Assembly (NCBI GenBank): GCA_947303145.1
Contig: CAMYXB010000001.1
Span: 1 to 42,334 of the forward strand
Direction: 5' to 3'
DNA from: an uncultured Clostridia bacterium
GTDB taxonomy: Bacteria > Bacillota > Clostridia > Christensenellales > UBA1242
DNA length: 42,334 nt
Made by a program: the position numbers and the translations under genes. Of this stretch, positions 3,546 through 42,334 are shown piece after piece. Each line of letters opens with the position of its first letter. Positions within the stretch are counted from its first letter, which is position 1. The notes under the pieces are model-generated. The model saw only the letters and a program-made list of their open reading frames with translations, ran no database searches and was not told where the DNA came from.

Positions 3546-3574
3546 TTGACATGAAATGGTGAATAATATATAAT
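3546..3574 (+). promoter_or_regulatory. near-consensus sigmaA promoter for 3600..3992
   Basis: TTGACA (3546-3551), exactly 17 nt, TATAAT (3569-3574), ending 26 nt before the ATG at 3600. Confidence 0.6.
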
Positions 3575-3599
3575 CGAATAAAAAAAGGAAAGCAAAAAA

Positions 3600-6793: not shown

Positions 6794-6808
6794 ATTATCA
6801 CCTATATT

Positions 6809-8020: not shown

Positions 8021-8024
8021 TCTC

Positions 8025-12042: not shown

Positions 12043-12095
12043 GTTTTTCTTCCTTTTCTTCAACGATAAACCCAAGTGTTATTGAGTCTATACCA

Positions 12096-13271: not shown

Positions 13272-13350
13272 AAGAAAATAATAGCACAAGTCGAGCGTTT
13301 TTTCAATCAAAAATACACTACCCTGCGCTATTATTTATTATATCGAATTA

Positions 13351-16300
13351 CTACTGGATAAACCTATATTCACGTGTTAGTTGATAAATATAATTAACTT
13401 TATCTGGTATATTGCCTAAAATCCAACTAAGAACTTTTGATAGTAGCAATCTTGCAGCAAGCCGTTCATACCATTTCATGTCCCTAAGATCATCTTTGGT
13501 CGGTTTGCCAGCGACTATCAACGACCACCACTGAGAATCACAATGCCCTCCTTTTGTCCCAGGACCAAAGTAAATGCTATAATAATTTTCCCAACTTTCA
13601 GCCGTCATGCAAGCATTAGCAAAATAAGTCCCGCCTTCTTTGTTAAACTTTATTTTTGTTGGTCTCCCATCTGAATTAATATACTCTCTGACACACCAAA
13701 CACTAAAGCCAGGTTCTTGATTTGCATGGTTCCTGATTTCATTAGGGAACAACTTGCCAAGAAGCTTGCCGTCTCTTCTACTTTGAAGGTTGCCAGAAGT
13801 CCCTTTCATATCACTACCGTTTTCCACAGCATAGAATTCGTCTCGCCCTTTATACATCGAAATCATATAATCCGCAGTATTACCCAAATCACAAGTTATA
13901 GATCTAATTGTAGAATAAATAGGTTTAGTGAAATAAACAGGGAATGTTTCGTTAAGCCATGCTCCTATCTTTCGTAAAGGCCAACCCCAATCTACAGTCG
14001 CTTCTCCTGGCCATACCACAACTCTATGAGTTTTATACCAGAAATGTAGGTAATCGAGTGAATATCTATTGACATACTCACATGTAAAACCAATACTGCG
14101 TCCACTAATATTTGTGAGCCAACCGGTATCAAATCCACCTCTCGTATCAATTTGACCATTACCTTTGACGTTGTAAGTAGTAATCATTCCACCTATCCAC
14201 AAGTCGCCCTCAACAAGCATTCCAGCTATATCATCATCAGCCAAAACGAATTCTCTTGCCCTTATGGCTAGTCCGTAAACATTATATTCTTTATCATCAA
14301 TCTTAACTTTTTCATCACCTTTGAGGGAATCAAACGATTGACGAATTTCCAAAACATGATTGTTTTGAATTATATCTCCATTTACATCTATATTCACTTT
14401 TCCTAAACTATAAATCCCTGGTGTGAGACAGAAATGGACCTTGTCAGGCTTGGATGGAGTTTTGGCTAAATAATTGTTATAATCTCTTGCGACATAATAG
14501 CCATTGCTCAAAGCGTAAGAATAATCACTAGACACATTCTCAGAATTTACTATTTCGTTGTCTTCTATTACTCCGCTATTTAGAGTAATTGTAGAGTTTT
14601 CGCTTCCATAGACTGCGCCACCAAATCCTGCAGTGGAGTTGCGGGTTATATACCCACCAGTCAAGACCAATGTGCTTTCATTGACATACACACCGCCACC
14701 ACTTTTTGCCGCAAAGTTGCCGGTAATATTGGCTCCCGCGTTTACTTTGAAAGTCGATGATTGTCCGAAATACACGCCACCACCATATTCAGTCGCAAAA
14801 CTTCCCTCTATGAATCCATTATTAAAAATCACAGTAGAATCTACTATATAGCACCCAGCGCCATAAGAAGCCCTGCCATTACTAATTGTAAGATTATTTA
14901 GTTCGATGTAAGGGCTAGAATCTATAAACATAGCCCCTCCTAAATCACTTAATTTCGGGCTGGATGTTCTACCATTATTTAGAGCCCCTGCTATAGATAG
15001 ATTTTTACAATTGCTCATGTATACACAATCTCCACGTAGAGAATGTGGATTATCACCATCTTTGCCATCAAATTCTTCACTATAAGTTCCTGTGACCTCA
15101 CCTAGATTGATAGAGAGAACTCCACTATTATCAGCAAAATGTAATTCAGATAAATATACACCACCACCATACTTAGCATTATTACAATTGATAGTTCCAC
15201 TCAAGTCGATGTCAAGTCCCTTTAAATCCACATCTGAAATGCTACCAACAGCCAATCCTCCGCCATATGTAGCAGAATTACCTATGATTTTGGCACTTTT
15301 TCCTTGAGTAAATGTGACGCCACCTATTTGTGCGGCTAAATCTAAATACACTCCACCACCTTTTCCCCCAGCAGTGTTAGAAGAGATTTCTCCTGCGGTG
15401 AAATTGAGCACCCCAGAAGCGACATACACGCCAGCACCATTCAATGCCATATTTTCACTTATCACAGACTTGGAGCTATCGTCTTCGTCTGAACTTCCTA
15501 TATTAACAATAGCATCATTTTGTAGTATCGCTATACCACCACCAAAACCATAATCTGATGTCAGTTGCGTTGAATCATTAATGACTTTCTTGTATCTCTT
15601 AAAATCTTGAACTCCGCCATTGTGACTTATCTTTGTCACACCCATTAAGGTTATAGTGCCATGTTCCACTGCTATGGCTCCACCTTTAGGGGATCCACCA
15701 CCGACATAGTTGTCTTTGAAAGCAAAACTGGTGATTATAAGGTTAATTTTTTCATCTTCTGGAGTATCTGGAGCATCTTGCACATTGTAATACAATCCAC
15801 CACCGACTAGGGCATAGTTGCCTATTATTCTAGCATTGACAACAGACGAATCATTATTGCCCTTAAACTCCGCATTCGTTTTAAGATTCTTGATGTATAA
15901 TCCACCACCATTGGCATTCTTGGCAATGTTATTCTCTATCTTGGCATAATTGCCCAAATTAATAGTTCCACCATCGACATAAATACCACCACCACCAACT
16001 TGATTAGGATTTGCTACATCTGTCCCTGCTTCTCTATCTCCCACTGACTCATTGTATGAGACTTCGGCATTACTCATGTTAAGTGTGCCACCCTCTGCTA
16101 CAAAGATGCCACCACCATTGATAGCCTTGTTCCCTTTAGGATTTTCTTTTTCATCTTTGCCTCCGATTTGGGCTCCAGATCCTTCTAGGCTTAATATTCC
16201 GCTGGCGATATAGACACCACCACCATTACCATACTGAGTCTTCTCTCCCTCGTTGGATACGGCTTCGTTGGACATTATCTTGGCTTTCTGTGTAATAGAC

Positions 16301-19300
16301 AAGGTTTCTGTCACCGCATCGCCAATATCCACATACAAGCCGGCACCATTAAGGGCCTTGTTGCCAGTTATTGTAGTATCTGAGCTAAAGCCTGAATTAC
16401 TTGAGGAGTCAGCATTATAGCAAACATTTCCGCATTTGATGTAAATGCCACCGCCACCTCCGACATAAGGATTATCTCCCGTATTATATACTCCCTCGCC
16501 ATTATTTACAGAATTGCCTTCCACAGTGACGATCATGAATATGATCTTGCGAGCATTGATATACATGCCACCGCCATTTCCGTCTGCACTGACCACTCCA
16601 TTCTCGACTGCAGCATTGGCTATATTCTTCGAAATGGTGACATTCTCAAGTTTTACATTGAGACCAGTTTTGGCATCAGGATTGTCGAAATACACACCAC
16701 CACCGTTGGCAGAAGAGTTGTTCGCTATATTAGTAGGCTTATTACCATTCGCCCTCAGGATAACGCTATTGTTCTCACCCTGTGACTCGGCATTTGAGAA
16801 CAATCCGCCACCGTTTAATGTAGCTGAGTTATATGACAATGTTCCACCAGCCATATCTAGTATGGCAGATTCTGCAATATACACACCACCGCCATTTTCT
16901 GAGGCGTAGTTGTGTGATACATTGCCTGTTATATTAACCTTGCCAGCGATAGCATACACACCGCCACCATTTTTGGCTGAGTTGGAATAGGCATCAGCTG
17001 TGGCTACCTCTTCGCTTTCGCCATCGCCTATATTTCCACTAATATTGAGCTCGGATCCCTTGCTGAACACAGCACCGCCATTTTCGGCTGTATTGCCAGT
17101 GAATTCTCCGCCTTCAATATTGACTTTAGCATCCTGTGCCACATAGATAGCACCACCATCGGTGGCCTCATTTGAAGTGAATGCCACTGAACCAAAGGTG
17201 GTCCCTTTAGACTCCACGACATACATGCCACCGCCATTTGTGGCTGAGTTTGACTCAATAGTTCCATTACTTATGGAGATGTCGCTATTCTTTGCCACGC
17301 ATAGTGCACCGCCGTTAGTGGCTGAGTTGTGTGTCAAAGTTCCACTAAGGCTGAATGATGAGACAGCCTCGAGATACACACCACCACCATTAGTAGCATA
17401 GTTATATGAGATAGTGCCGGATATATCCACATTGCCACCATTGGCATAGATTCCACCGCCATTAGTGGCTGAATTGGAATGATTCTCGTCATCGGCTGTT
17501 GTAGATTTATCCTCACCTATTATGGCGCCCTCACCTATGACTATCTCTCCGTCTAGTGAGTATACACCGCCACCATTATTGGCGATATTGCCATATATTG
17601 CTCCGCCTTGCATGTCAAGAGTAGCAGAAGTTGCTACATACACACCGCCACCAAGAGCGGTGACTTTATCCTCGCCCTCTATTGTGGCTGTGCCATTAGA
17701 GGAAATCTGTGCTTCATCATTTATGTTGAGAGAGCCAGATTCGACATACACGCCAGCGCCTTTTGTGGCATAGTTGCCACTTACCTCGGCATCACTACTC
17801 AATGTAGTGTTGCCCTCAGAGTATACACCGCCACCACAATCGGCTTTATTGCCACTTATTGTAGCATGAATTGTGGCTGTCATACCACTGCCGACAAATA
17901 TGCCACCAGCATTTTCACTGGCTGTGTTGCCTGTGACTTTAACGCCACTAGGTATCTTGACTGCACTACTACCTGCTAGATATAACGCTCCGCCATCACG
18001 TGCATTGTTGCCTGTAAATGTAGCATCGCTATCTTCAGTAAATGTGAGTGTGGCATCACCGAGATATATTGCTCCGCCATTCGCAGGAGTGGTGGAGTTG
18101 CCAGAGATATTGACACTCTTGCCTATTGTAAGTGAACCACGAACTATGGCTATGGCTGAGCCATCACCTGTGGCAGTGACACCAGATATAGTGATGCCAT
18201 TCAGCACTGTCTGACCACCATCTATGTATATCGCTCCACGAGTGACGGTGCCTGTAATGGAGACATTCGACACGGTCTCAAGTTTTCCAGCTTTTACATA
18301 TACCAGTCCATTAGATGCTGTGCAAGTATTCTCTATGGTGGTGTTCTTTATGGTGGTATCACCGCCATCTACATAGACAATAGAGCCATTGACATTGCCA
18401 GAGATATTGCCAGAGATATTGCTGAACGACACTTGATTGGCTGCCCCGTCACCTTTGCCTAAGAATAGGTGTCCTGCCTTCACTGTGATGAGAGGCGAAG
18501 TGCTACTGTATGAGCCATTGTCGAACTTGACATTGTAGATGTAGAGAGATGTGTTGGCGCTATTAAGCTCCAATCTCGCCTGCATCTGCAGTCCGTCATA
18601 ACTTCGAGCGGTGACAGCTATCTGCCTCCACTTACTATCTTGTGTCTCAAGGGACACTCTATTGATATATTCTTGAGAGAGGTTGAATGAACCGGAAGTC
18701 AAGTTGACCACAAATTCCTCTTCTCCGCTACCGGTTATTTGTGCCAGACCATCGATTGCCTCATACTCAGAAGCCAGATTGATGTTCTCGAGCAAGACCA
18801 CGTCTATATGTCTATAGCCATTGGCATAATCTGCACTTAGTGAGGAGAGTGCCTTCTCTAATGTGATGTAATATCTTATGAATTCCTTATTATCACTACT
18901 ATTGTAGAATATCTTGGCGACCTTCCTCATGCCTATGATGACGTCATAATGTGCTGTGCCGTCATCAGATGTGAGGGAATCTTTGTAATCCAAAACGAAA
19001 GCATATTCATTGCCATTTGCATCTATACCACAGAATAGTCTGTCGTCTGCAAATCTATCCGCTATCCTATGGTCATACTTGGCTATAATGGTGTAGCAAG
19101 CATTAAAGGCATAATCGAGTTTGAGATTGATAGGCTTGTCGTTGAGGGCTGTGTTGTATCTACCGTTGACAAAGATATAACTATTGAGCATAGAGCCATT
19201 AGGTGTGTAGTAGTCTATGAGATACACATTGTCTTGAATATGGAGGGCAGAACTGAGAGCCTTATCCTCAGGCTTTTCGTCTGCCTTGATGGTGGAGACA

Positions 19301-34300: not shown

Positions 34301-37300
34301 AGAGTGCTGACAGCCTTTTCAAGATATGCGACTATGCCTTGAGTGTCCCACACGGCATACAACTCAAGATTTTCATCATCTAAAGCCTTGACATCGGTCA
34401 TCACACTGCCTTGCCTGTAGTAATAATAGTAGACACCATGTTCTTCTTCAGAATAATAACCCTTTTCATCAAAAGACTTGCCAGTAAATTCGTCTGCTGA
34501 GACTCCTTTTTTGGTGGAGAATCCTAGGAGAATGCCTGGGGTTTGACCATAAGTATTGTAGTTGTAGACGAAGAATGACTCATCATTATACATCACCACA
34601 TTATCCTTGGAAGGCAGGGTGAGACTGTCGCCCTGAGACAGGACAACCTTGATTTGACGATCTGACTCGCCCTCTTTAAGCTCTGTAGGATTGTAGTGCA
34701 GGATTACATTGACGCCCTTTCTGACGTAATAAAATGTGACCTCTATCTCATCACCTTGCAGGTCTCTATTGTCTCTATCTAAGGTGAAGTCCTCATCAAT
34801 ATTGTGTGTGCCTGAGTCAATGAATGCAGGTCTAGCATTTATCTTATACTTCATGAACTGATAGTTGTCTGGCACAAATAGATGCTTGACATAATAGATG
34901 CCACCATTGTAGTGCGCTTCTATTCCATTAGGAGTGTTTATGATATAGTTCGTCTCCTCTCCAGTCTTTTGAGAGAGAGTGTCTTCGCCGATTCTCAGTT
35001 CGTTTATGTTTTCCGTGGTGCCTTGCAGTATCTCTACTTCGCTCTCGTCATACACCACTGTATATGCCTTATATAAGCGCTTAGGTGCGCCATTTTCCAT
35101 CTTTAATGTGCCGTCATCATTGTATACGAAGCTATATCCCACGTTATACTCGACTCCATCATTGTCCTTAAATGTCATGTCAGGCAAAACAGAATAGGAC
35201 TCTCCATTGCTCATTGTAATGGTGAGCTGTCTGTTGTTATTGAGTGAACCCTCGACAGGCTCATAGTGAACAAGTTGAATCTTACTGAAGATGTCCTCCA
35301 TGAACATATTGACAAGGTCGCCCTTATAGGCATATTGCTTGGCGTCCTCTTGAGTGGTGAAAATGGTGTAAGTGATGCCCTCTGCTGAGAACTTGCCGTC
35401 CACTACATCGTATGGCACAGCAGTTTCAGAAAGGTCGAGTTTGGCCTTATTATTATCATAGTCCACATACACTCTAACCACACTCACCTGACTTGTCATG
35501 GCATATCCATCAGTCTTTATGCCATTGATGGTGGCACCAGTCTTGAAGTATTCGTTGATGCGGGTGAGAATGTTGCCCTCTCTCTCAACCACCAAGCCAT
35601 CTATGGTGTAATAGCCATTTCCTGTGGAGCCATCAAGGAATTTATATGGCTTATTCATAGTGTCTATGTGTGAGTCGAATATTGTGTCGAAATTGAATGA
35701 CACATGATACTCTATAGGCTCCCACACAGCGTAGAAATACATGTCATGTGCAGGATATGTGAGTCCGTCAAGATTGGATATGAAGTAGAATCTGCCTGTG
35801 TAGTCTCCACTCTCATAGTCATTGTCTATGGCGTCTATGGTGAGCTCTAATCCATCTTCCTCATCTATCTCAAACTGCCTTGCATACTCTGTGATATGCT
35901 TTTCATTCTCATAACTGAAATACACCCAGCCCATGTGTCTGTATCCTGCTCTTGTCACAGACATGGCCTCGTATTTATCCAAATCAGCGCTGATGTCACC
36001 AGCAAATTCCACCCTATATGTGCCAGCAATGCCCTTCTCTCTGCCGGAGGACAATTCCTCTCTATCCACGCTTAAATCATCGAATATGATGTCGAAATTC
36101 CTATAATACAAGTCCAGAGTATATCTCGTGTTTTCTTCATCTATTGGTGTCTCTGTGGGCATGAGCATATACTTGCTGGCGTGTTCTATCTTGAACAAAT
36201 TTCTAGGATTTTCTTCATCATTTTTCATATCCAAGTAGAAGTCATAGCCGTCTTTAGTGGCGAACTCCACCATAGGCGTGCATATAGCAGTGATGCCGTC
36301 TCTATCTTGGTAGTAAATGCCGATGGAGAATAATTCATTTTCATCATAAGTCTCCAGATGGACTATTTCATCTGGATAGACATTATCAAACTCGTCTATG
36401 GACAGAGTTATGTAATGATAGCCGTTCTCCACCTCTGAATAGTCCTCTCCCTTACTAGAAAGATACTCATAGATAGACGACAGATATATGTCTTGATTGC
36501 CACCAAAGTATGTCCCACCATAAATATCTATATGTCCGTTGTTGAGTATGGCATAATTGCCATAAGTGCTTTTATTGTTGTGGAAGAACACTTTGCCTAG
36601 TTTAATCTCTCCATTATTGATAATGGTGGCTTTCTTAGCAGAGTTGCCCATAACAAATACATCTTTGAGGTCCGCCTCAGCGTCCTCTGCTATATATATA
36701 GAAGATGCCTGATAGGAGTAGTTGCCATTGAAATACTTGCCGGCGAAGTCATCATCGTTGCCCCTAGCCTTGACTGCGGCAAAATATTGAGCATAACTCT
36801 CGTTCTCTTCCTCTTCCCACGCTTCAACAGCTTCATAGTTTATCTCTACTGAACCATCGAGATTGTAGCTGGTATTTGCATCTATACACTCCTGTCTTTC
36901 CTTGTCGTTAATAGGGTGGTCACGATAACTAGACAGGTCCTTCTCTTCTATTGAGTGCAGGTTTTTGCTAGTAATCTCTACTTTGCCTGATGCAATATAA
37001 ATACCACCACCATAATATGAGTAGTTCTCACTTATTTTTAGATCTTCACCTAATGTGAGTGTTCTGCCGGTAGCATCAACATACATACCACCACCCATAT
37101 AATCTGATGCGCCTTCAAGAACTTCATCCAAAAAACTTTGGCCAAAATAATAGCCTCTCGCCGTGTCTGGCAAAATTGTGTTATTTTTTAGTATTAATAT
37201 ATTGGAAAGGGTGAGATTGCCTGTCTTATTGGCGTAATACACCCCGCCACCTTTCTTGGCTACATTCTCATTTATCCACAATGAGACATCCTCTATCTTA

Positions 37301-40300
37301 GTGTTGATGAAAAAGTTCCCACTTTCGTCTTGATCTTTGTCTGTGACCTCTCTTTGGGCACTTATAGCTGAGACTGAGCCGATGAAACTGGCAAAATACA
37401 CACCACCGCCATTGTCTGCGACATTGGCAGTAATAATGGTTGAGGTAAATGACACTTGGGCGAGATCTTCACTGCCTTGCCCCATTATATACATATAGCC
37501 ACCATTTTTTGCCACTCCAGAGGTCAATGTGCTATTCACAAAGGAAATACTCTTGCCAGCAAAGAATATAACACCGCCATTCCCATCAGCGCTATCGTAG
37601 CCGTCTGTATAATCTAGTAGAACGTCGTTTTCGTAATAGACCTTATAATCTCTGTTTTTGAGATTATTTACTGTGATGACGCTACCTCTATCGAAGTAGA
37701 GAGCTCCACCGTCCCCTAGAGACCTATTTTCTGCTGTGACGCAGTCATTGAATGTGATTCTAGCAAATTCTGTATACAGGGAACCTCCACCCTTTTTGGC
37801 ATTATTTTTACAGAAAGCCATACCATTGAATGTGAACGCCACAGGTGAGGAGTCTCCATCTCCCACCATGGCCATGCCACCACCGAAGTCGGCGGTGTTG
37901 TCACTCATGACAAAATCTGCGATAGAGAGCGTGAGATTCACTCTCTTGAGATACATCGCTCCGCCATAACCTGCGAAGCCTTCCTCTGCGCTAGAAGTGG
38001 CTCTATTATTGGTAAACGAGACTGCAGACAAACTAAGCGAGCCAGAGTTGACAGCCAACGCTCCACCATAACAATTAACTTGTGAAGAAATGCTGTTGCT
38101 TTCGAAAACAACACTGGATATGGTGAGCGTGGAGCTCCTTGAATAAACTGCTCCGCCATACGCCTCAGCCTCACTGACTACTCTATTGCTCCTAAATGCA
38201 ACAGAGGAGAGATTGACTGTTCCCTCTAGAGTATAAATAGCCGAGCCGAGATGACTGGAACTTGATATATTTTCAAATGAAACATTGCCACTTACATTGA
38301 GCCAACCTCCTTCCACACTAATGATAGGACTATCATTGGTGTCGCCATCTAAGGTAGAAAATTTTAGACTGGAATTAGGGGCTTTTTGACCAGTAATTTT
38401 GACTCTGCCGTTATTTAAGACACGGAATAGACTGCCACCGCCTGTCTTGTATATAACTGGGGTGTATTTTCTTCCCTCTAGTTCTATATTAAGCGTGATA
38501 CCACTTATAACAAAAGTCTGGCCCACTGTGGTGTTGCTAGCTACGGTCACGTCTTCATTGCTGTTGCAGATGGTCACGGTCACGCTCTTGCTATTCGATA
38601 GCCCTGCATAAATGACAGCTTCGTCTAGTGCCTCTTGGATATTGCCATAGGTCTTGGTGTATGGTGTCGCATTCGCTACAAATCGATAACCCACTCCAAG
38701 TGAATCTTGCTCAAACTCCTTGAAATTGTTTATCTGTGCTACAGCATTGCCAAAGCCCAGCATAAAGTTGATGACATACTCGCCACCTACTTGACTGACA
38801 CCTCTATTGGTGCGAAGCTCCCATGTAGCTCCGCCTTGCAGAGCGTCTCCAATTGGGTTGAAACTATCGTTGAGACGTCTATATGAATTGGCGTTCTTGC
38901 CTCTCCACTCGATGTATCTAGTGATAGGCAGAGTGAATACGGAGTCTATGACAATGGTGTCATCTGAGAATTCAAAGTAATATAGATTCTTTGAGCTGTC
39001 CTTTGCCTTGCTCACCATACTCTTTGTTTCGTTGTCTTTATAATCAATGGCAGACTCTGGGGCGGAGCCTGAATTCTGCAGATAGATACGCACTTTCACC
39101 TTGGCAGGCTCAAAGACAGGTGTAATGGTGATAGCGTTGTTATTGCTGAAGTCCATCAATCTGTTATATTCACCATTAGAGCCAGTGTATGTTATAAGTC
39201 CAGTCCTAGAGTCTATCTTCCACTTTCCATTACCATCAGGAGCCTCTATGAGCAGTCTCCTGTCCTTATCGTTGACGGAGATTTTCTCTCCAGCAGAGAA
39301 GGTGGACCACACTCCGTCTTGTGTGTTGTCTATTTTCCATTCCTTGAATGTATATCCCGATGGGACGTTCCAGCCGGCAGGAATAGAGGAGAGGAATGTG
39401 AAATCCTCACCATAAGTCATCTCTCCACCAGACAGAGTCTCCACATTGCTGTTCTTATAAGTGACAGACTTGGTTATGGGCTGATAGATAGCATAAAGAG
39501 TCTTGACTGGCACTGAGCCATCTATCACATAAGTGAGGGCACTGTCTACCTGAGAGGAAGTAGCACTTCTCTCATAGTATCCCACTATAACTCTATCCTT
39601 GTCCGCATCGGAGAGAGCGGAATATGCATCATAGTCTTGGACACTCTCGTCTTGCGACCAGCCGATAAATCTGTATCCATATTTATTAGGTCCCAAAGCG
39701 GAACTATCACTATACAATGGATATAGACGATATCTAAGTATGGTGTCGCCACCCACTTCTGTTATCTCTGGTCTAAGAGAAGGCAGGTTGAAAACAATGG
39801 CCGTCTGTTCCCCGTCCTCTTCGTCAATGTATGTATAGTTGTAATATCCGCCCTTTAGATCGAATATGAGTTCGAATGTATTATAGTTAGGTGTTAATAC
39901 ATATATATCATTATTATTTAATGCTACAGAAAGAGTGGCGCCGACAACGGAATAGTTGAATCCGTTGTGATTCCAGCCATAGAATGAGGCTCCACCCGCC
40001 TCTTCTGCCACGACAAGAGAGATGTCATCTATCTCTTCGCCATAACTTGACACGAATGTCACTCCTCCATCCACTCTCTCGAATATGAGTGTGCCCTCAG
40101 GGAACGAAGAAATCTGTCCCAATGTGTTAATTCGAATGAGAATGCTGGAATAATCTATGGCATATTCATCAATGCTCTCGTAGCTATAGGCATAATATAT
40201 CTTGTCAGTATCGAAATTACTCGATGTGAGTGTCACCTCTTTGAGTCCAAAGTAGCCTTCGTAGTCAAGTAAGGTGTGGCTTTTTGCAAAGGTGTCGAAG

Positions 40301-42334
40301 TCTTGAGTAGAGGTGTCTATATTGCCCAGTTTGCCCTCCTCTCCATAGGTGTTGGCGTCCATGGTGATGAGTCTTAGGTTGCCCTTCCACTCGACAAATT
40401 CAGTCACATCACCACTCACTGTTATCCCCTTGCCGTCTAGAGTAGTGCTAGCATGATGATTGACTCTGGTGAAAAGCTCGTGTGCAGACAAAGATCCTGT
40501 ATCTACTAGAGTGATGACATCGCCCTTGTAGGTGTAGGTGTAGATATAGTTTCCCCCTATCTCCCACTTGACACTCTCACCTGCCAAGTCTTGACCAAAG
40601 TAAATGTAGTCGAATGGAGTGGAGTGGAGAGCGACATCGTCATAGTCTCCTGCGTTTATCTCCACCTTATGCTCACTATACATGGCATAGAGTGTGACGG
40701 CATAATAAATCTCTCCTGTCTCTGCATTGAATGTGGCGCCATCAGCATGTGGTTGAGTGGCATCTCTGAGAGGTTGAACGCCACCATACACTTCTAGAAG
40801 GTCTATAGTCATGTTGGAGCCATAGCCCGCTAGATATTTCATCTCAAGGTCACTTCTAATGGACCAGCCAGCGAAATCAAATGTTCTGCCTGCTCTCCTA
40901 AGGATTAGTCTGCTCTCGTCTAGACCGAACGAAGTGGTGACGATGTTAGAGAACTCGTCTGTGTATGCGACCTCTCCGCCCACTGTGATATTTATGCCAG
41001 TAGTTCTCAAGAAAGATGATGTGAATGTGACACTAGGATTGCTCACTAGGCCATTGACACCGGAGGCAGTATAGAAGAGTTCCTTCACTTCCTCCTCGCT
41101 ATCTAGATATACACCTTGCCCCAAGTCGAGCATAAGTCTATAGCTTACCTCTTCCCACACAGCAGTAAATGTGATGTCGAAGTCGTCTCCTACTATGTAT
41201 CCATAGTCCTTGATAGGCAGAGCCCCTGGGGTGAAGGATTCTGGGCCTATGTATCCTGACACAGAGTAGAACTTGAACACGTCTGCATTGGAATAAATCT
41301 TGCCGTTATAACTCCAACCAGCGAATTTGGTCCAATAATTGTTGTCATAATCGAAAGCAATCATCTCAAAATCGCTGTCTGTGATGCTCTGTGATGCAAA
41401 GTCTAAATCCTCAAGGGCGAGAGAGGAGTCGTATAAATATGTAGCCAAAATATCACTATTGGCTCCGAGAGGATCTGTGAAAGTGACAGAATATTCCTTC
41501 TGCACCCACAGAGGATATAGATAATATATCATATTGTCCGGTGAGTATGTGTCTATGAAGTTGTAGGCATAAGGCTCGGAGTTCACCCCATCGCTGAAGA
41601 AGTATGCCCTAACTCCATTCTGCACTGCACTAGAGGTGAGTGCATATCCACCTGCTGTCTTCTCTATATTGCGAATATCACAAGATGATGACCAGCCTAT
41701 ATGCTCCCAACCAGCCAAAGTAAGCTCTGGACAGAGAGTGAAACTCTCGTCATAATCTACTATCTGTTCCGTCAAATCTGTAAAACCAGAAGTAGGGACC
41801 ACTATTTGTCCAGTGGCATATTCGTCATAAGAGCCTAGAGCCTCTGTCTTGCCTGGACTGAGAGTCTCATATTTCACAATATATGTCAATGGCTCCCAAA
41901 AAACAGCGACATAAAGCTCGAATACTCCAGCGTCCTCGTTGTATATCACTTGATAATCCTGCTCGTATGAGCCAATGGCAATATTTGCTATGTTTTCGAT
42001 AATATTGGAGTAATCATGACTGTCTCTATTGTAATCTACGAAGTAGTCAAATCTAGGTGAATAGCCCACTCTAGTAGGAAGAGGGAATGACTCATCTTCA
42101 AGGTTATAGTTATCCCCTAGTTTGAGACCACTAATGGTCAAAACTTTGCCGTCAAGGGATAAGTTCCCCACAATTTTGCTATTATCAAAATTTATTTTGC
42201 CAGCATTGTAGTCGGATATTACTTTGTCGATATATCTAGTTTGGTTGCTATTGTAGGCATCGGCCTGCGCTTGTGCCTGAGCATAGAGTTCATCTATCTG
42301 TTTTAGATAGACATTTTCCTCATCTGGAACACCA
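13351..42334 (-). CDS. giant multi-cassette beta-helix/repeat surface protein (adhesin-like), 5'-partial, at least 9,660 codons in the window
   Basis: One stop-free frame runs from the TAG at 13351-13353 to the window edge. The 54 codons upstream of the track's GTG start (42171) are also open (GVPDEENVYLKQIDELYAQAQAQADAYNSNQTRYIDKVISDYNAGKINFDNSKIV). There are dozens of FxxN...GGA[IVL]Y repeats, plus Y-x-V-x-F...GY-x-F-x-GW repeats and an LRR block. Confidence 0.9.
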   Translation of the reverse strand, partial: GVPDEENVYLKQIDELYAQAQAQADAYNSNQTRYIDKVISDYNAGKINFDNSKIVGNLSLDGKVLTISGLKLGDNYNLEDESFPLPTRVGYSPRFDYFVDYNRDSHDYSNIIENIANIAIGSYEQDYQVIYNEDAGVFELYVAVFWEPLTYIVKYETLSPGKTEALGSYDEYATGQIVVPTSGFTDLTEQIVDYDESFTLCPELTLAGWEHIGWSSSCDIRNIEKTAGGYALTSSAVQNGVRAYFFSDGVNSEPYAYNFIDTYSPDNMIYYLYPLWVQKEYSVTFTDPLGANSDILATYLYDSSLALEDLDFASQSITDSDFEMIAFDYDNNYWTKFAGWSYNGKIYSNADVFKFYSVSGYIGPESFTPGALPIKDYGYIVGDDFDITFTAVWEEVSYRLMLDLGQGVYLDSEEEVKELFYTASGVNGLVSNPSVTFTSSFLRTTGINITVGGEVAYTDEFSNIVTTSFGLDESRLILRRAGRTFDFAGWSIRSDLEMKYLAGYGSNMTIDLLEVYGGVQPLRDATQPHADGATFNAETGEIYYAVTLYAMYSEHKVEINAGDYDDVALHSTPFDYIYFGQDLAGESVKWEIGGNYIYTYTYKGDVITLVDTGSLSAHELFTRVNHHASTTLDGKGITVSGDVTEFVEWKGNLRLITMDANTYGEEGKLGNIDTSTQDFDTFAKSHTLLDYEGYFGLKEVTLTSSNFDTDKIYYAYSYESIDEYAIDYSSILIRINTLGQISSFPEGTLIFERVDGGVTFVSSYGEEIDDISLVVAEEAGGASFYGWNHNGFNYSVVGATLSVALNNNDIYVLTPNYNTFELIFDLKGGYYNYTYIDEEDGEQTAIVFNLPSLRPEITEVGGDTILRYRLYPLYSDSSALGPNKYGYRFIGWSQDESVQDYDAYSALSDADKDRVIVGYYERSATSSQVDSALTYVIDGSVPVKTLYAIYQPITKSVTYKNSNVETLSGGEMTYGEDFTFLSSIPAGWNVPSGYTFKEWKIDNTQDGVWSTFSAGEKISVNDKDRRLLIEAPDGNGKWKIDSRTGLITYTGSNGEYNRLMDFSNNNAITITPVFEPAKVKVRIYLQNSGSAPESAIDYKDNETKSMVSKAKDSSKNLYYFEFSDDTIVIDSVFTLPITRYIEWRGKNANSYRRLNDSFNPIGDALQGGATWELRTNRGVSQVGGEYVINFMLGFGNAVAQINNFKEFEQDSLGVGYRFVANATPYTKTYGNIQEALDEAVIYAGLSNSKSVTVTICNSNEDVTVASNTTVGQTFVISGITLNIELEGRKYTPVIYKTGGGSLFRVLNNGRVKITGQKAPNSSLKFSTLDGDTNDSPIISVEGGWLNVSGNVSFENISSSSHLGSAIYTLEGTVNLSSVAFRSNRVVSEAEAYGGAVYSRSSTLTISSVVFESNSISSQVNCYGGALAVNSGSLSLSAVSFTNNRATSSAEEGFAGYGGAMYLKRVNLTLSIADFVMSDNTADFGGGMAMVGDGDSSPVAFTFNGMAFCKNNAKKGGGSLYTEFARITFNDCVTAENRSLGDGGALYFDRGSVITVNNLKNRDYKVYYENDVLLDYTDGYDSADGNGGVIFFAGKSISFVNSTLTSGVAKNGGYMYIMGQGSEDLAQVSFTSTIITANVADNGGGVYFASFIGSVSAISAQREVTDKDQDESGNFFINTKIEDVSLWINENVAKKGGGVYYANKTGNLTLSNILILKNNTILPDTARGYYFGQSFLDEVLEGASDYMGGGMYVDATGRTLTLGEDLKISENYSYYGGGIYIASGKVEITSKNLHSIEEKDLSSYRDHPINDKERQECIDANTSYNLDGSVEINYEAVEAWEEEENESYAQYFAAVKARGNDDDFAGKYFNGNYSYQASSIYIAEDAEADLKDVFVMGNSAKKATIINNGEIKLGKVFFHNNKSTYGNYAILNNGHIDIYGGTYFGGNQDIYLSSIYEYLSSKGEDYSEVENGYHYITLSIDEFDNVYPDEIVHLETYDENELFSIGIYYQDRDGITAICTPMVEFATKDGYDFYLDMKNDEENPRNLFKIEHASKYMLMPTETPIDEENTRYTLDLYYRNFDIIFDDLSVDREELSSGREKGIAGTYRVEFAGDISADLDKYEAMSVTRAGYRHMGWVYFSYENEKHITEYARQFEIDEEDGLELTIDAIDNDYESGDYTGRFYFISNLDGLTYPAHDMYFYAVWEPIEYHVSFNFDTIFDSHIDTMNKPYKFLDGSTGNGYYTIDGLVVEREGNILTRINEYFKTGATINGIKTDGYAMTSQVSVVRVYVDYDNNKAKLDLSETAVPYDVVDGKFSAEGITYTIFTTQEDAKQYAYKGDLVNMFMEDIFSKIQLVHYEPVEGSLNNNRQLTITMSNGESYSVLPDMTFKDNDGVEYNVGYSFVYNDDGTLKMENGAPKRLYKAYTVVYDESEVEILQGTTENINELRIGEDTLSQKTGEETNYIINTPNGIEAHYNGGIYYVKHLFVPDNYQFMKYKINARPAFIDSGTHNIDEDFTLDRDNRDLQGDEIEVTFYYVRKGVNVILHYNPTELKEGESDRQIKVVLSQGDSLTLPSKDNVVMYNDESFFVYNYNTYGQTPGILLGFSTKKGVSADEFTGKSFDEKGYYSEEEHGVYYYYYRQGSVMTDVKALDDENLELYAVWDTQGIVAYLEKAVSTLASSYNLYFKSVEDAFDEVDARTLASYKVVVIDDAEDGTSVTKNITVNKSVTIKGQGDDRKLVFSSTITIKSGATLNIDSTNNFVWTSTKDISSPIIIVESGATLNTSSKVIFSGVITSSGVAVIEVNGTANINGGYSYKTTDAQSGTFSSIHSGKGVIYVARSGVLNLSGVYFESNESTSNGGAIYIDGGVVSIEDCLFSNNKADKEGDSSAHLGGAIYATSASRLTLGTVKFTENYATDGGAIYASNAININSGKSILFSKNTASNRGGAIYTSGTLTLSTNVEFVGNKANNQGGAIYSASSLYVWAGYFKGNIQDNDDASQPEIYGGGAIYAMGQLTINSRGNTYSDVFGSNEAVQFITFNGNIAYRGGAIFASSATASIENVTLINNNKDTKTNYYGGALYINASQVNIINEEDNENLEIKNNGKEGVQISFGGFAFVDNGTLTINNSTITDNFGNSGGGIYAEDNAKIILNNSHVNGNSAVKGGGVYLVRGALLFMSEGSTISENIGLQGVGGVNFESSVANTLSFGKILNNEGASGTASNIFVANNSTITLSGVDMDERVCDDNGEKVPTEDMFSNMPSILVDNTGSLSVIDTIVSGTIKVAGRQSDSYGKLFISGTAYIEGLSLEHHSYVKSSSLNSEELVDGKIIIDIDLDNIPSLRKKLEEEGKHNVIEFSDQNSFMRYSRCFSLNNNDNNRDLAVYCLVRSKDGYFLSLQPSADNIIIHGNGGQLFLDGRAITGEYGEPLEIIKDGEPMLDVRGHALRGVYIKEKTLSEVLSGITGDRFGYSLMERYAYYNESGELSSWYTTDSEKSNEVITIYAQWKAENYDCYLIVDGSEMSAGYLSAESGVTLTVASDIKPYYEVDKWVAKYKNEDDEYVAFEGIEEISNGTIFTLRDLVNASSVIRENNIKKIYFEATFKLETVSVEVKIPSSVDATFIEGLSSDTTYTVEGKGEYRKLITVNAITKTYTETFSRAEGVVSFHHFRNIFNYPEHILTGLMTTGSVIYDQANPMIDLTKIQRGKSISLTASFGVAVAYIYREIDGNPITIDYTDIYSAVSDLRAGDSLYLVKRDIVLDRTLTLSYDVTILPTGDNITLKRADGFSGEGKYLIDILSSVTFDNNATSTLTIDGNNVTSYAGSLHVAKTGSVTLNSCVTIRNNHSIMTSTSSSVGGGVYSEGVLNINGATFDSNWAVSGGAIYATGSVSILGESKFENNKAKYGAVIYATGNAVITANLDDGLFKDNEAIYGGAIYYASNRESSFSGITFESNVAGGSGYGGAIYLEKNCKAVTISSCSFKTNSATFGGAIYVGGLSSSSYAVLSASDGCQFEGNSATSGGAIYVSNEGSLQQISLSGSMFTSNTASQEGGAITIKAGRLVLDATQFSLNTAPIGSSMSISSDSEQKRATVMINGGEFGSDGNRGTISLDRLSTLSIGGSVDMLDRIVLGEGAFVTISSAITSSVKMVIVPSSYPASGEEVRVATFANGQTPVDSYFDVEEDKQDDYRMKVSTQNIVITEAIYSLNLHFEGGVPSGTVSGDEIDDGVVLSVKYKTDIIPLISGITLTQESRDFRGWYYIFEGNEIDLPSTLAMPRSDVDIYARWSNLYYYLYADINDTASISSSSASTIEVEGVERIGQFLKVKVYVEQYEGDVMTTHNGADALSLIYSALDGREGYTFSGFDLSQTGSVTYNSEGKDKDGDYFAMTESDVIVYVIWKANTFTIEFNANSSTATGDIEPVVVNYDEYFTLPYDTFSAIGYTQDGWNTQANGQGTAYEIGDRIYNLSSTDGDTITLYGEWRANTYTVIFDSNLTGEIVSGNIEPITLSYGETRVLTGERFSTNGYTQERWNTQKDGQGSSFALNGEIVNLTSTDGAVVVLYAQYRVNSFVVTIHNAGSISPTQVNYKGTFSLDSHDMTGFTVPSYSHLIGFSSNAQDVIDKNVEFEDGSEIIILDNTDLYAIFDLNYIRIFKDDTLKEYADVHVSQNGDGIASVSQSELNTFAGLGYRVGSIKMLTALSPLTYGEEKTFSGDSISVNLRNGNQYAIMQINSKTYTLTFLTSPQTSKSVVFGDTFEVNRMESVDFQGWSFAREGATVRELDVPADTTSLVLDSALLEKASGYQSLSSDIVFFYPVLSATFVITYNKNTTHNVIGGFVSSSEEQSIHSQYSVLSNIEIADSTSATSVNRNHLFAYLVGWSLTPNGEIFLTAGEKVGEGCEHVLVGSVTLYAVWAYYTNPFIFSYSSDYKAITGLNNNALSFFTGEGEHLTLPRHAILPDGSMGPDIESVSFSDNPLNDSIASIDFSLMAEGLTLEDMALYHLDHLTMVNLDVSGLTLGYGSLSGGALTSVILTEDGIYKIEDGIIYEGGNLHTYLEALSSSDVCDLTSFAGEILPLAFLGVTLDDLIVGDSVSYIRDGAFYGLASPSIHLPFIGHTAGDASNLRVLYTFDDTTLMNSLKKVYLSSTEIASGAFEDCTDIEAVITSGDITTVGADAFKGATGLRILGADETKFDLSHVTSIGDRAFKNCASIPSEEVRVGHLVDSDTLVTIGVDAFRSSSLTFVSLPRRVDVKKDAFKDSSVSSARLYSINAFDEVLLSGHVAKRGRGDSVIYTNVDLYRTILNGGKTYSKYLEYELAVEDIIEVYDYVDGEYIRGDNYSSLEDAVTDSAPYALILVKWDMYVYRTLELTKEVTIVGATDTNGATPASEINIYRGDGFDGVMFNVSGNNVQFGKKALSLAEVRLVPLNIVGDTSSTASSAFLVDSSTKQGAKLTLEGNFDSSFSPSGTSMLNIYNHKANNGPVADIVNGSVVVDGAKIYGNTAMDKGGAFYLDSNASLYVYKAEIRDNFAVKGGTIYASSNSAVYMTAQSLGDIVITGNTATNGGAIYIDSTIEDERYASSLDNVSISSNTARENGGAIYVNRGMLVIASGEICGNTATSFGGGVYSEGALVLHGAVIGTEAEPNTAKYGGGVAIKGNGRLLSSDDSIISYNLASQGGGVYIDSTADMVVGQSRVSDTAISSNNTISAISSSDYLGGGLYVRSGSVLLSEGCDISSNYAYYGGGVYVTGGLLTLASGGKICDNHAYSGAGVMAVRLTSALFGTVRIGGEVSGCVALESGGGMVVSGGKAVLLSGANISSNSAKYGAGVYMTGASTLESNAVSTNPSIIDGNTASKNGAGIYVNSNKDMSISLKNVEIKENTAIEYGGGLFVTASKASDKALFKTSQGFKIDGNSALRGAGVYLDSLARLSLGYAMITANFNTDNCAGDNVYISSKATFSISSGTISRDESRAYASIYLGNTADKALIVDNDVNLDSVYLATGTKVFISALSYGTSVSSKIAIELEEELKDGERILVALYDNEQVANPTRFSATSKVFTKEGEKVFMTNSTCYVTDSESNTFYYASIKDAIEQYEDNGSLYTIHITKDQVISSSSMIVVPTGKSVTLVSEDDASIIRDENYAGVMIAVFGSLNINDDSNTATFNIYGGEKDTYKDRGTAPIIVIAGKGSVNLFKGVCLSYNKTSISSYIEITDPKDYSTVVYPTGFNGGGAVYVASKDSTGLTIIGATLTDLSATYGGAVYVAEKSSFTIQSGSLTHNLATYGGAVFVESGTMNIQDVNDVVDISDNEALLGGAVYVSGSGSIVLSDSTSNTTFARNIGNENGGAIFFSSSSTTSRINGVAFTSSTATYYGGTIYVSQGRLSLEAVDITSSYAPYGGAIAVVETGSISISGASNISSCGEGPIALTQYGGAIFYASSQRSTITGSGENSPSIESNKASFGGGIYLSSGSMLIEKATFTSNIAQNKGGALYMNGVSVEIRASVLSSNRSILGGAIYAESAKLSIYAGEISGNIATLYTYLDKENYYGETDERLATDHEEGKGSGGGVYMLGGELTIASTTSDGSPTISGNKSYSSGAGLYLFGTVGTISNAEIRNNEMAYGIHYVVEHKKDDTGEVICSVLIYRTGAGLFVSGETESTGSQLSIYNGTVEGNVIKCGDEKYRDGFNMYLKYGYVLLGGEPTFSQGEDKSLAGIWLDYNYEAMYSYKGGLASRGLIFKCKIDYITDLVKLSYKETTAFAVAAQNVENEALVSSDGGVVRFKVVFSDTDLSQVEKEKKDYGDKVVSLNCTLSTLKAIYKYMFDLPLSSGQTLKAGSSDTQPTHLVISQQYFQELDAKGDLVAVYETLADALLKASNNSIILINMLEQTKENEDNYYKYFEPKNGILSITETLYTFNAQPGLDRSLNTDKMNGVRITLLARTITNSTTRKNTFSLYNVPIRDNIHDDIYRDGTIIERGIDVMSGTQFSGDLFRIGEKDTLVFGYPSDMDPIVKQKIQNEYFTGNYVDGMGTDYVNLNPILQLRNSNFSLQSLDAKYPESTTGVAIKVERGGTVVFGSSFELSNSNIEVGSTYMSHVTLTDGATAKIQGGVYHDNMASKVSSLVFAPSGSNVEITGGRFIGIANASFNKGSVIYSSGAKVSVRGAYFENNYVGEIRATGVNGYVGVNGAVIYAGEGSSLTLGSKNIFQNNYTKGDGGVIYMIDSSLAITGENTFSQNGALGNGGAIYSSATLGMTIGESGATYSVSFIENFAMNGGAMYILEGLESATLSPASVSIYHATFSSNISGVGDKINSSGGGLGGAIYARSYRAENADGDYDYYLDLSLTDVTITDGVAQAVYNMVEESRDFASSYYYVWNTLTGTYDRASTYDADTEYYVVRQGYVYEVASNVTNDMILESTLYVKKMGEGFEPYYEPVYKFQGSGNYYLGSSLTPKSIRSEEEFLKYVYSVRVGSISEYEYCVARAVARAEEWDSSVTYYKLASSQPSYVNVGKIDAEDFVKDQYYIYDNDSKTYEQSTDTSLLNRYVKQGGQGAGIFASGIKLTIGGESAITSNTSSSHGGAIYSTTSLVTISQGNILGNQVLSGNGGAVFLDENSTLNLGDSVNDERVKMSNNIADEGGAIYTTLKYVAPNYISTSVNILSVTMSGNISTLDGGKSSGIYVNSYGNGFALVSTIKADEKPEDKALSSALHIQDNVYLIDYYTPNGSMLNSYIFVNGRYNTALNDKPINLKLDYAFNACYTIIAKYDHRIADRFADDRLFCGIDANGNEYAFVLDYKDSLTSDDGTAHYDVIIGMRKVAKIFYNSSDNKEFIRYYITLEKALSSLSADYANGYRHIDVVLLENINLASEYEAIDGLAQITGSGEEEFVVNLTSGSFNLSQEYINRVSLETQDSKWRQIAVTARSYDGLQMQARLELNSANTSLYIYNVKFDNGSYSSTSPLITVKAGHLFLGKGDGAANQVSFSNISGNISGNVNGSIVYVDGGDTTIKNTTIENTCTASNGLVYVKAGKLETVSNVSITGTVTRGAIYIDGGQTVLNGITISGVTATGDGSAIAIVRGSLTIGKSVNISGNSTTPANGGAIYLGDATLTFTEDSDATFTGNNARDGGALYLAGSSAVKIPSGVKVTGNTASENAGGIFVGSGMTATIHATISGNKADCGGGVYSEGNTTLSSDAEVSGNYATKGAGVYVESGSLNINDEAQISSNGTATIEGEDKVTALGGGVYVATSATLDMQGGAIYGNIANNGGGVYSLDGEIVIGEGAIIGEDKSTTADDENHSNSATNGGGIYANGGNVDISGTISYNYATNGGGVYLEAVSSFSLSGTLTHNSATNGGALCVAKNSDISISNGTIESNSATNGGGMYVVESKGTTFGSVAFTSNEATDGGAIYVAQDAKVNIEGGEFTGNTAENGGAVFSKGSELNISGNIGDGESEEVATADAYSNSAKNGGGVYAIAGKVNITGNVSHNYASENGGGVYIAESAILDMAGGTLSYNSATLNGGGLFSNAESQGENNSVILRANGNKPTNIANNSSANGGGVYFDNPDAKTGLNVKLENVTISKNIANAAVENGVVSADGNGGGMYINARKIIFMIVTVEGNSVNNGEGVYNTGDNPYVGGGGGIYIKCGNVCYNADSSSNSGFSSDTTITGNKALNGAGLYVDIGDAVTETLSITQKAKIMSNEAVSNEGEKTQYGNGGGVYIASGILSLEGSGAQIGGKDEKENPKGNKAINGGGIFVAEGGTLNMSNAEVSYNESVGDREAGTDVANPNQVGGGGIYVDGGTINLGNYAKIENNIAKNANGGGLYIKNLKTNAEFKGNNDSSVVNARIIGNYALVGGGLYYNVQDAPDTPEDEKINLIITSFAFKDNYVGGGSPKGGAIAVEHGTITLMGVTKISHNGGVQDFKRYKKVINDSTQLTSDYGFGGGIAILQNDAIVNIGSSDEDDSSKSVISENMALNGAGVYVASGVLNFTAGEISSNTAGGKGGGVYLDLAAQIGGVTFTQGKSAKIIGNSATYGGGLAVGSISDVDLKGLDIDLSGTINCNNAKYGGGVYLSELHFADNSGVLSINLGEVTGTYSEEFDGKDGDNPHSLRGDCVYMSNCKNLSIAGALNNGRTSSPKLSDLGGAMFIDSSPYIELNNLTISNGRASYGAGCYIVDSTVIFNNGFIEGSFATEYGGGVYFGQSSTFKVNAGANITGNFAAKSGGGVYVNESTLVLTGGYITRNSTAGFGGAVYGSENSTITLNSGVIEDNEIVNSENVSSDYSYALSNGYYVARDYNNYLAKTPSKPDKVHFCLTPGIYSLGKVNIDVNGDIIQNNHVLEIRQSFDSLKGDEKVKIDDKEYNVYGLAIRAREFVLADDDIAGMLVEGDLWIGGMITTYNVKGNGQIDTRGGFDTGWLTNISGRSIGFTCEYVNRYSLDYLHFWYKTHRVVVWPGEATVDWGWPLRKIGAWLNETFPVYFTKPIYSTIRSITCDLGNTADYMISMYKGRDEFYAVENGSDMKGTSGNLQSRRDGKLLGKLFPNEIRNHANQEPGFSVWCVREYINSDGRPTKIKFNKEGGTYFANACMTAESWENYYSIYFGPGTKGGHCDSQWWSLIVAGKPTKDDLRDMKWYERLAARLLLSKVLSWILGNIPDKVNYIYQLTREYRFIQ
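13354..14600 (-). other. non-repetitive C-terminal domain of the giant protein (~415 aa), unassigned
   Basis: GGAxY periodicity stops abruptly. The sequence is Trp/Tyr-rich with scattered Cys and His (WYKTHRVVVWPGEATVDWGWPLRKIGAW, GGTYFANACMTAESWENYY, GTKGGHCDSQWWSLIVAG). There is no LPXTG motif and no clear terminal TM helix. Confidence 0.6.
14600..18480 (-). repeat. beta-helix cassette 7 (the longest, ~1,290 aa)
   Basis: A very regular ~22-25-aa periodicity: SNSATNGGGIYA, YNYATNGGGVYL, HNSATNGGALCV, SNSATNGGGMYV, SNEATDGGAIYV, GNTAENGGAVFS, and further to RNSTAGFGGAVYG at about 14610. Confidence 0.85.
19300..21180 (-). repeat. beta-helix cassette 6 (interrupted by a Tyr-rich insert at about 19745-20300)
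   Basis: Examples: FQNNYTKGDGGVIYM, FSQNGALGNGGAIYS, ENFAMNGGAMYI, then the insert, then SNTSSSHGGAIYS, VLSGNGGAVFL, NNIADEGGAIYT. Confidence 0.8.
22250..23900 (-). repeat. beta-helix cassette 5
   Basis: Examples: LSATYGGAVYV, HNLATYGGAVFV, DNEALLGGAVYV, RNIGNENGGAIFF, SSYAPYGGAIAV, SNKASFGGGIYL, SNIAQNKGGALYM. Confidence 0.85.
24330..26240 (-). repeat. beta-helix cassette 4
   Basis: Examples: GNTAMDKGGAFYL, GNTATNGGAIYI, SNTARENGGAIYV, GNTATSFGGGVYS, SNYAYYGGGVYV, SNSAKYGAGVYM, GNTASKNGAGIYV. Confidence 0.85.
26520..27600 (-). repeat. BspA-type leucine-rich repeat (LRR_5-like) block
   Basis: Recurrent units of the form x-I-x-x-x-AF-x-x-C/S: VSYIRDGAFYGL, TEIASGAFEDCTDIEAV, TTVGADAFKGATGLRIL, VTSIGDRAFKNCASIPS, VTIGVDAFRSSSLTFVSL, VKKDAFKDSSV. 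Confidence 0.7.
28650..29146 (-). repeat. two tandem ~82-aa Listeria-Bacteroides (Flg_new-type) repeats
   Basis: ANTFTIEFNANS...IGYTQDGWNTQANGQGTAYEIGDRIYNLSSTDGDTITLYGEWR is directly followed by ANTYTVIFDSNL...NGYTQERWNTQKDGQGSSFALNGEIVNLTSTDGAVVVLYAQYR. Confidence 0.85.
29900..31060 (-). repeat. beta-helix cassette 3
   Basis: Examples: VGGGVYSEG, ATFDSNWAVSGGAIYA, FKDNEAIYGGAIYY, ITFESNVAGGSGYGGAIYL, CSFKTNSATFGGAIYV, CQFEGNSATSGGAIYV. Confidence 0.85.
32620..34170 (-). repeat. beta-helix cassette 2
   Basis: Examples: VYFESNESTSNGGAIYI, CLFSNNKADK...LGGAIYA, VKFTENYATDGGAIYA, ILFSKNTASNRGGAIYT, VEFVGNKANNQGGAIYS. Confidence 0.85.
36960..38480 (-). repeat. beta-helix cassette 1 (Pmp-type FxxN/GGAxY repeats)
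   Basis: Examples: VAFRSNRVVSEAEAYGGAVYS, VVFESNSISSQVNCYGGALAV, VSFTNNRATS...YGGAMYL, and further to YYGGGIYIASG. Confidence 0.8.
38700..42171 (-). repeat. N-proximal region of Listeria-Bacteroides (Flg_new-type) like repeats in the giant protein
   Basis: Recurrent strand-rich units end in aromatic-GW motifs (LAGWEHIGW, FAGWSYNG, FAGWSIRS, FYGWNHNG, FIGWSQDE, FKEWKIDN), followed by LYA/LYP-type closing strands. Confidence 0.55.

Follow-up and report, generated by a model that had tools for sequence, protein, structure and literature searches.

Proteins of up to 85,804 amino acids (aa) have been reported in a survey that places those of at least 10,000 aa in a ‘large’ class and reads gut Clostridia proteins of 10-30k aa with Listeria-Bacteroides and leucine-rich repeat (LRR) domains as adhesion factors (West-Roberts et al., bioRxiv 10.1101/2023.11.21.568195). 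Apilactobacillus kunkeei carries five genes, Giant1-5, whose products of 3,000-8,000 aa have an SRRP-like solenoid at the N-terminus (PMC12863079). Here we describe a giant open reading frame (ORF) on contig CAMYXB010000001.1 of GenBank assembly GCA_947303145.1, analysed over its full 42,334 bp (the window). The ORF is the 3′ four-fifths of a ~36-kb gene and encodes the C-terminal ~80% of the product, leaving ~2,430 N-terminal residues outside the contig; we call the encoded 9,660 aa the visible protein. The product is a striking example of an already described kind of giant protein, and is probably a secreted adhesion fibre of the cell surface.

The minus strand holds 9,660 sense codons without a stop, from position 42333 to a TAG at 13351-13353, as an earlier note on this DNA had pointed out. 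Over these 28,980 nt, a six-frame stop count finds 327-815 stops in each of the five remaining frames. Base composition gives a stop probability of 0.059 per codon, for which the chance of a stop-free frame of this length is ~1e-253 (log10 P about -253). Periodicity of GC content across the three codon positions (GC1/GC2/GC3) is coding-like over the full ORF. TGA, TAA and TAG each terminate neighbouring genes, which indicates the standard bacterial code. The window, whose PilB, PilD and RecR are catalogued on a contig of exactly 42,334 bp, is the whole contig and the ORF continues past its end, so the gene is 5′-truncated by the contig end and not by the choice of window. An exact 60-mer from the window end had no match in genome contigs or metagenome contigs.

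The full gene is represented in other assemblies. Contig SRR14574024_4531 (66,605 bp), from the Logan assembly of run SRR14574024, is collinear with window positions 23321-5084 at 96.7% DNA identity and is a second assembly of the same species. There the gene is called as a single 12,087-aa product wholly inside the contig (~22,023-58,286), with 22 kb of other sequence upstream and an end 59 nt before recR. In a sister species, whose RecR and DedA are 82% and 70% identical to those of the window, the collinear orthologs measure 12,225 and 12,240 aa and are internal to MEGAHIT contigs of 76 and 97 kb. Counted over both species, four assemblies besides that of the window carry the gene intact. 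The earlier note suspected misassembly or collapse driven by repeats. No DNA repeat within the ORF exceeds 64 nt (78% identity), tandem arrays number only two (each <30 nt), and the protein repeats are old and diverged, scoring at most about 100 bits between modules; nothing is therefore present to drive an assembler to collapse or misjoin. With the second assembly and the orthologs, this removes the suspicion: the ORF is one intact, conserved gene, and misassembly, collapse and pseudogene are effectively excluded. Two other statements of the note need tempering. Its ‘among the largest bacterial proteins’ overstates a product of ~12,100 aa, which falls in the ‘large’ class well short of the reported maximum. 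The novelty that it attached to the absence of a characterised ortholog is lowered rather than removed, since full-length orthologs exist and none of them is characterised.

The giant gene evolves much faster than its neighbours, yet under purifying selection. Comparing the two conspecific assemblies gives a ratio of nonsynonymous to synonymous substitution rates (dN/dS) of 0.41 for its last 1,136 codons, where nine genes nearby give 0.02-0.23. A ratio below 1, together with an intact ORF of conserved length and order, implies that purifying selection acts on it. Identity to the sister ortholog is ~35% overall; in blocks of 100 aa it is 30-50% nearly throughout, in rods and spacers alike, with five blocks at 26-28%. 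Fast divergence and a raised dN/dS would fit an exposed, contested surface molecule.

Public catalogues represent such genes poorly. All 120 database matches listed are of at most 2,262 aa, and the exact partial 9,660-aa product is absent from the protein collection. On ENA scaffold LIUQ22-1_SAMN18817883_METAG-scaffold_118, an ortholog is interrupted only by two 100-N assembly gaps. The first 10,000 nt of this scaffold carry no coding-strand call upstream of the gaps, five small ORFs of 56-153 aa have been called antisense within the giant ORF, and only the last 746 aa of the product are present in the protein catalogue. Results of the ‘no homolog’ type are therefore unreliable for giant proteins: their genes are missed or shredded, and the absence of further orthologs is weak evidence.

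We scored domain families in the visible protein with Pfam and NCBIfam profiles, applying the Pfam gathering cut-offs. All three families that the earlier note had named from the letters (Pmp beta-helix, Listeria-Bacteroides and BspA-type LRR) exceed them. Chlam_PMP (PF02415) scores 82.5 bits (cut-off 20.6), alongside 82.3 bits for TIGR01376 (POMP_repeat). Flg_new (PF09479) scores 54 bits (cut-off 27) in two stretches at aa 4398-4562, and LRR_5 (PF13306) scores 70.3 bits (cut-off 27.7) at aa 5141-5262, where the PDB entry 4fs7 also matches at E 3.6e-5. The motif GG[AGV][IVLMF][YFA], which marks GGxxY coils, occurs 84 times at a typical spacing of 26-32 residues, with F..N up to 19 aa upstream in 26 of the 84. 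The coils form eight PMP-type modules (Table 1, where module 6 comprises two, aa 6845-7320 and 7540-7660) that sum to 4,758 aa, or 49% of the visible protein. A cap motif, Y..[ILV].[DEK]A, opens at least four of the modules. An AlphaFold2 model of module 5 (aa 6060-6640; 22-sequence alignment) is all-beta, with a predicted local distance difference test score (pLDDT) of 77.8 and a predicted TM-score (pTM) of 0.83, and its top Foldseek matches in the PDB are all right-handed beta-helices (Antigen 43, AlgG, PL6 lyases, tailspikes), none of them significant. The Pfam family Beta_helix (PF13229) matches the sister ortholog at 37 bits. A profile built from aa 5750-7050 and the ortholog found only generic PMP/beta-helix proteins among the matches listed, at up to 30% identity over long stretches and up to ~40% only across 6-10% of the query.

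The spacers between modules gave no significant Pfam match, and a PDB sequence search with five of them matched only the LRR. Unannotated stretches include aa 1-1224, 1800-2675, 3260-3715 and 6620-6845. Many end in an LYAxW..Y.V.F motif of the Flg_new type, below significance. Such strand motifs are typical of Listeria-Bacteroides-like domains. None of the suspected divergent copies was picked up when an HMM of the two Flg_new repeats was iterated, and aa 1-1250 had no match in a k-mer-indexed protein search. The ~220-aa insert that divides module 6 (aa 7320-7540, nt 19714-20376) is rich in Tyr, with repeated YY and Y-x-Y motifs that look like beta-hairpins; it has no Pfam match and resembles cell-wall/glucan-binding repeats.

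The C-terminal ~380 aa differ in composition from the rest of the visible protein: isoelectric point 7.7 versus 4.5, Trp 3.4% versus 0.5%, and Lys plus Arg 12% versus 6.6%. This domain had no PDB sequence match and no match in the k-mer-indexed protein search. A HMMER scan of 1.84 billion (1.84e9) representatives returned a single homolog, the ortholog's own C-terminus, and an alignment of the domain found no relatives in JGI metagenomes. Between species it is 30-41% identical, about as conserved as the rest.

The C-terminal domain and the last rod share a second peculiarity. GC content at third codon positions (GC3) is 0.28-0.45 in 13354-18333, against ~0.5 in 18334-42333 and the neighbouring genes (0.55 in recR). 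Codon choice shifts with it: from upstream to this 3′ cassette, GAC falls from 56% to 20% of Asp codons (p=2e-9), AAG from 70% to 38% of Lys codons and GAG from 66% to 40% of Glu codons. The same break appears in the independent Logan assembly and is therefore real. It suggests that a lower-GC relative supplied the last rod and the C-terminal domain through recombination. The cassette junction bears two tiny tandem repeats, at 18329-18357 and 18394-18422.

The source organism appears to be an uncultured gut bacterium of the Clostridia. Among GTDB representatives, the only close PilB is that of Clostridiales bacterium UBA9845 (63% identical; all others at most 48%). PilB, PilC and PilD are 63, 67 and 58% identical to those of UBA9845, and the order pilD-pilC-pilB is shared. 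UBA9845, from mammalian guts, is Ca. Apopatousia in the Christensenellales family UBA1242 (PMC8957277). UBA1242 genomes are mostly <1 Mbp, miss most biosynthesis as well as sugar and amino-acid transporters, unexpectedly retain sporulation genes and are predicted to be partner-dependent; pili go unmentioned in the published survey of the family (PMC12306168). These matches suggest a host related to this reduced-genome family, with placement inside it not proven. They also agree with the earlier note's impression of a compact, monoderm-like gene content, the closest relative being in a monoderm, reduced-genome family of Clostridia. Its description of the DNA as low in GC does not hold: the window has 44% GC, which is not particularly low.

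Our best reading, which we consider probable, is a secreted, fast-evolving adhesion fibre on the cell surface; we infer the adhesin role from domain content. The full gene of ~12,100 codons would encode an exported, acidic fibre of ~1.3 MDa. About half of the visible protein would form eight right-handed beta-helix rods of PMP-type GGxxY coils, joined by beta-rich spacers (some of them Listeria-Bacteroides domains like the InlB B-repeat) and a single LRR module of the BspA type. Secretion would be directed by a signal within the ~2,430 aa missing at the N-terminus, and the basic, Trp-rich C-terminal domain would hold the fibre at the cell envelope. The fibre might reach ~0.1-0.3 micrometres from the cell and bind surface glycans or proteins of a host or partner. 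We infer this length purely from ~170 coils of 0.48 nm plus spacers.

Several points weigh against this reading. About half of the protein has no recognisable domain, and the best Foldseek match of module 5 is non-significant (E 0.024, TM-score at most 0.34). The visible 9,660 aa contain no signal peptide, the N-terminal ~2,430 aa lying beyond the contig. They also contain no transmembrane helix (no 19-aa window has a mean Kyte-Doolittle value >1.6) and no C-terminal LPXTG, the sole LPxT[GAN] being internal at aa 1721. The earlier note had reported the lack of both anchors, and these motif and hydropathy scans of the visible part bear it out; we rejected a sortase substrate on the same grounds, no C-terminal LPXTG or hydrophobic helix. 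AlphaFold2 gave no usable model of the C-terminal domain (pLDDT 29.7). In the sister ortholog, a hydrophobic hairpin of two helices (AITSAIAIIAAEAGAVAGVV...GIAILTTIAAITC) and then a ~75-aa tail come after this domain; the hairpin is absent from the window protein, which has an amphipathic helix, LAARLLLSKVLSWILGNI, in its place. Genome size and habitat are those of the nearest relative, not of the source organism. The weakest step of the model is that the C-terminal domain would be the cell-proximal end, binding the envelope non-covalently. This mode of anchoring is a guess, because the domain is unmodelled and the ortholog's hairpin is absent here.

The closest described counterparts are the large gut-Clostridia proteins of West-Roberts et al. 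Shared features are the class Clostridia, the size class (12,087 aa, thus at least 10,000), Listeria-Bacteroides and LRR domains, and a predicted role in adhesion; the gut habitat is that of the nearest relative. The giant protein differs in that its bulk is PMP-type rods, in its orphan C-terminal domain and in its host, related to UBA1242. The preprint gives no per-protein description, and the comparison is with the class.

Chlamydial Pmp proteins, type V autotransporter adhesins, share the GGA(I/L/V) coils, often preceded by FxxN, which in the giant protein too would form a right-handed beta-helix, and both PF02415 and TIGR01376 match strongly. They have one passenger domain where the giant protein has eight rods and is ~10x longer, in a probably monoderm host. 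We rejected a Pmp autotransporter, since scans of aa 8550-9300 and 9250-9660 detected neither an autotransporter beta-barrel nor any other Pfam family at E<=0.5. Giant1-5 of A. kunkeei are very large extracellular beta-solenoid proteins that take up a big share of a small Firmicutes genome and are mosaics driven by recombination, traits that the giant protein probably shares. The present case differs in being one gene, of ~12,100 aa, with PMP-type rods throughout, and is likened to them by description, not by sequence homology. An LRR, a B-repeat of the InlB type (Flg_new) and a basic C-terminus with Trp, possibly able to bind the wall non-covalently, are likewise combined in Listeria internalin B. 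Here, in contrast, the LRR is of the BspA and not the internalin type, no GW/SH3 module is detected and the protein is 20-fold larger. The Omnitrophota giants (>30,000 aa) also belong to bacteria with small genomes and a putative dependence on partners, and contain beta-helix filaments. A type II/IV secretion-like operon adjoins the giant gene in this species, but not in the sister species. Omnitrophota giants have numerous transmembrane regions and a divergent SecA_DEAD domain. We rejected a giant of this type because the present protein is one third of their size at 12,087 aa, belongs to an unrelated phylum and shows in its visible part no transmembrane-like segment and no SecA family match.

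Four alternatives to an adhesion fibre were weighed. The rods could be parts of a multi-module machine that binds or degrades polysaccharides, serving as pectate or alginate lyases, epimerases or tailspike depolymerases on mucin or a partner's wall, as proposed for predatory Omnitrophota giants. The Foldseek list for module 5 does include lyases, epimerases, glucanases and tailspike depolymerases besides adhesins. The West-Roberts et al. preprint argues that giant proteins degrade cell walls (bioRxiv 10.1101/2023.11.21.568195), and the missing transporters and predicted partner dependence of UBA1242 (PMC12306168) would suit such a role. We nevertheless consider the machine improbable. Every structural match is non-significant, and the Pfam and NCBIfam scans of the visible protein found no glycoside hydrolase, lyase or peptidase family. 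PMP-type coils, moreover, are generally known from the adhesins of chlamydiae and not from enzymes.

A structural component of the envelope, such as an S-layer-like coat, a sheath or a spore/exosporium appendage, would also be very large, acidic and repetitive. The basic C-terminal domain suits wall binding, and sporulation genes are retained in UBA1242 (PMC12306168). We give this explanation a low probability, however: Pfam scans of the visible protein found no SLH, CWB2 or other S-layer anchoring domain, the protein diverges very fast from one species to the other, and LRR and InlB-type repeats typify ligand binders.

If the protein were a polymorphic toxin or contact-dependent effector, its repeats would form a delivery stalk and the orphan C-terminal domain the payload, with the foreign codon usage of the last ~5 kb recalling the swapped C-terminal cassettes of such systems. 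This is very improbable, and we rejected it. The next gene downstream is recR in both species, with no immunity gene; the C-terminal domain is kept between species like the rest, not replaced; Pfam finds no pre-toxin or known toxin domain; and the cassette is 1,660 aa long and mostly beta-helix. Finally, the sharp codon-usage break at aa ~8000 and a contig end within the gene could point to an assembly artefact, chimera, decaying pseudogene or several genes, a chance made negligible by the lack of long DNA repeats, the identical break and continuous ORF in an independent assembly of another run, the orthologs in two more assemblies, the dN/dS of 0.41 and zero stops in 9,660 codons.

The adhesion-fibre reading can be extended. 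In a Patescibacteria-like lineage of Clostridia that depends obligately on partners, the protein might be the organelle of attachment and possibly of feeding, with a new-fold, lineage-specific C-terminal anchor and diversification by swapping of the 3′ cassette. We regard this extension as doubtful. If it were true, one ~36-kb gene would take up roughly 4-5% of a <1-Mbp genome, and would offer a first molecular handle on how reduced gut Firmicutes of the UBA1242 type grip a partner or host. A recent proposal that UBA1242 members are obligate symbionts or parasites was drawn from metabolic gaps alone and named no interaction machinery (PMC12306168). A conserved, intact, fast-evolving surface-type protein of ~12,100 aa beside recR is an obvious candidate for that machinery, and one at which proteomics, imaging and efforts to identify the partner could concretely be aimed. 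The likely reduced-genome host and the orphan C-terminal domain are the two points that retain real interest.

Table 1. Features of the 42,334-bp window. Residue numbers refer to the 9,660 aa visible in it.
Feature	Position (nt)	Strand	Basis and remarks
Giant ORF, 9,660 codons + TAG, 5′-truncated	13351-42333	-	Stop scan; full gene ~36.3 kb (12,087 aa) in the 96.7%-identical assembly
Beta-rich region, aa 1-1224	38662-42333	-	No significant Pfam/PDB match; several LYAxW..Y.V.F strand motifs; weak Flg_new (E 0.03)
Beta-helix module 1, aa 1225-1800	36934-38661	-	PMP-type GGxxY repeats
Beta-helix module 2, aa 2675-3260	32554-34311	-	Best Chlam_PMP match, 80 bits, 6 stretches
Beta-helix module 3, aa 3715-4110	30004-31191	-	PMP-type repeats
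Two Listeria-Bacteroides repeats, aa 4398-4562	28648-29142	-	Flg_new; amid diverged similar units, ~aa 4200-4910
BspA-type LRR, aa 5141-5262	26548-26913	-	LRR_5, 70 bits; PDB 4fs7
Beta-helix module 4, aa 5325-5905	24619-26361	-	PMP-type repeats; N-cap motif YSSLEDAV
Beta-helix module 5, aa 6065-6620	22474-24141	-	Repeats and AlphaFold2 model
Beta-helix module 6, aa 6845-7660	19354-21801	-	Split by Tyr-rich insert, aa 7320-7540
Beta-helix module 7, aa 7815-9280	14494-18891	-	Longest, ~1,460 aa
3′ cassette, aa 8001-9660 (1,660 aa, mostly beta-helix)	13354-18333	-	Codon-usage break
Orphan C-terminal domain, aa 9281-9660 (~380 aa)	13354-14493	-	Composition shift; no Pfam/PDB match
recR	12684-13310	-	40 nt downstream of giant ORF; no terminator-like site between
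Type IV pilus/T2SS-like (pil) operon, complete	5138-12491	-	Gene content; downstream of recR
Three N_methyl prepilins	12096-12491, 10478-10945, 9250-9642	-	pil operon
377-aa ORF	10942-12075	-	Inside pil operon; no Pfam match
Prepilin peptidase (PilD)	8025-8813	-	pil operon
PilC	6809-8050	-	pil operon
PilB, MshEN domain	5138-6793	-	pil operon

The giant gene also adjoins recR in the sister species, and the two species have in common a backbone of giant gene, recR, orf377/orf332 and dedA. The pil operon of the window, which includes unannotated ORFs of 377, 284 and 146 aa, is syntenic with UBA9845 and absent from the matching position in the sister species. A functional link between the giant gene and the type IV pilus operon was rejected on this account, the sister species having the order giant gene-recR-orf332-dedA with no pil genes there. 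The 377-aa ORF shares a 122-aa C-terminal domain, at 73% identity, with the 332-aa protein with multiple transmembrane segments that follows recR in the sister species (L084:10675-11673). By this resemblance, the 377-aa ORF may be part of the conserved recR backbone rather than of the pilus genes.

The opposite end of the contig carries the 5′ half of a 23S rRNA gene (1-1424, minus strand). Neither a 16S rRNA nor a tRNA gene lies upstream of it in the 42 kb; what follows, after a gap at 1425-1985, is a protein ORF of the opposite strand at 1986. The 23S gene therefore seems to be unlinked from 16S, an arrangement frequent in reduced or slow-growing genomes.

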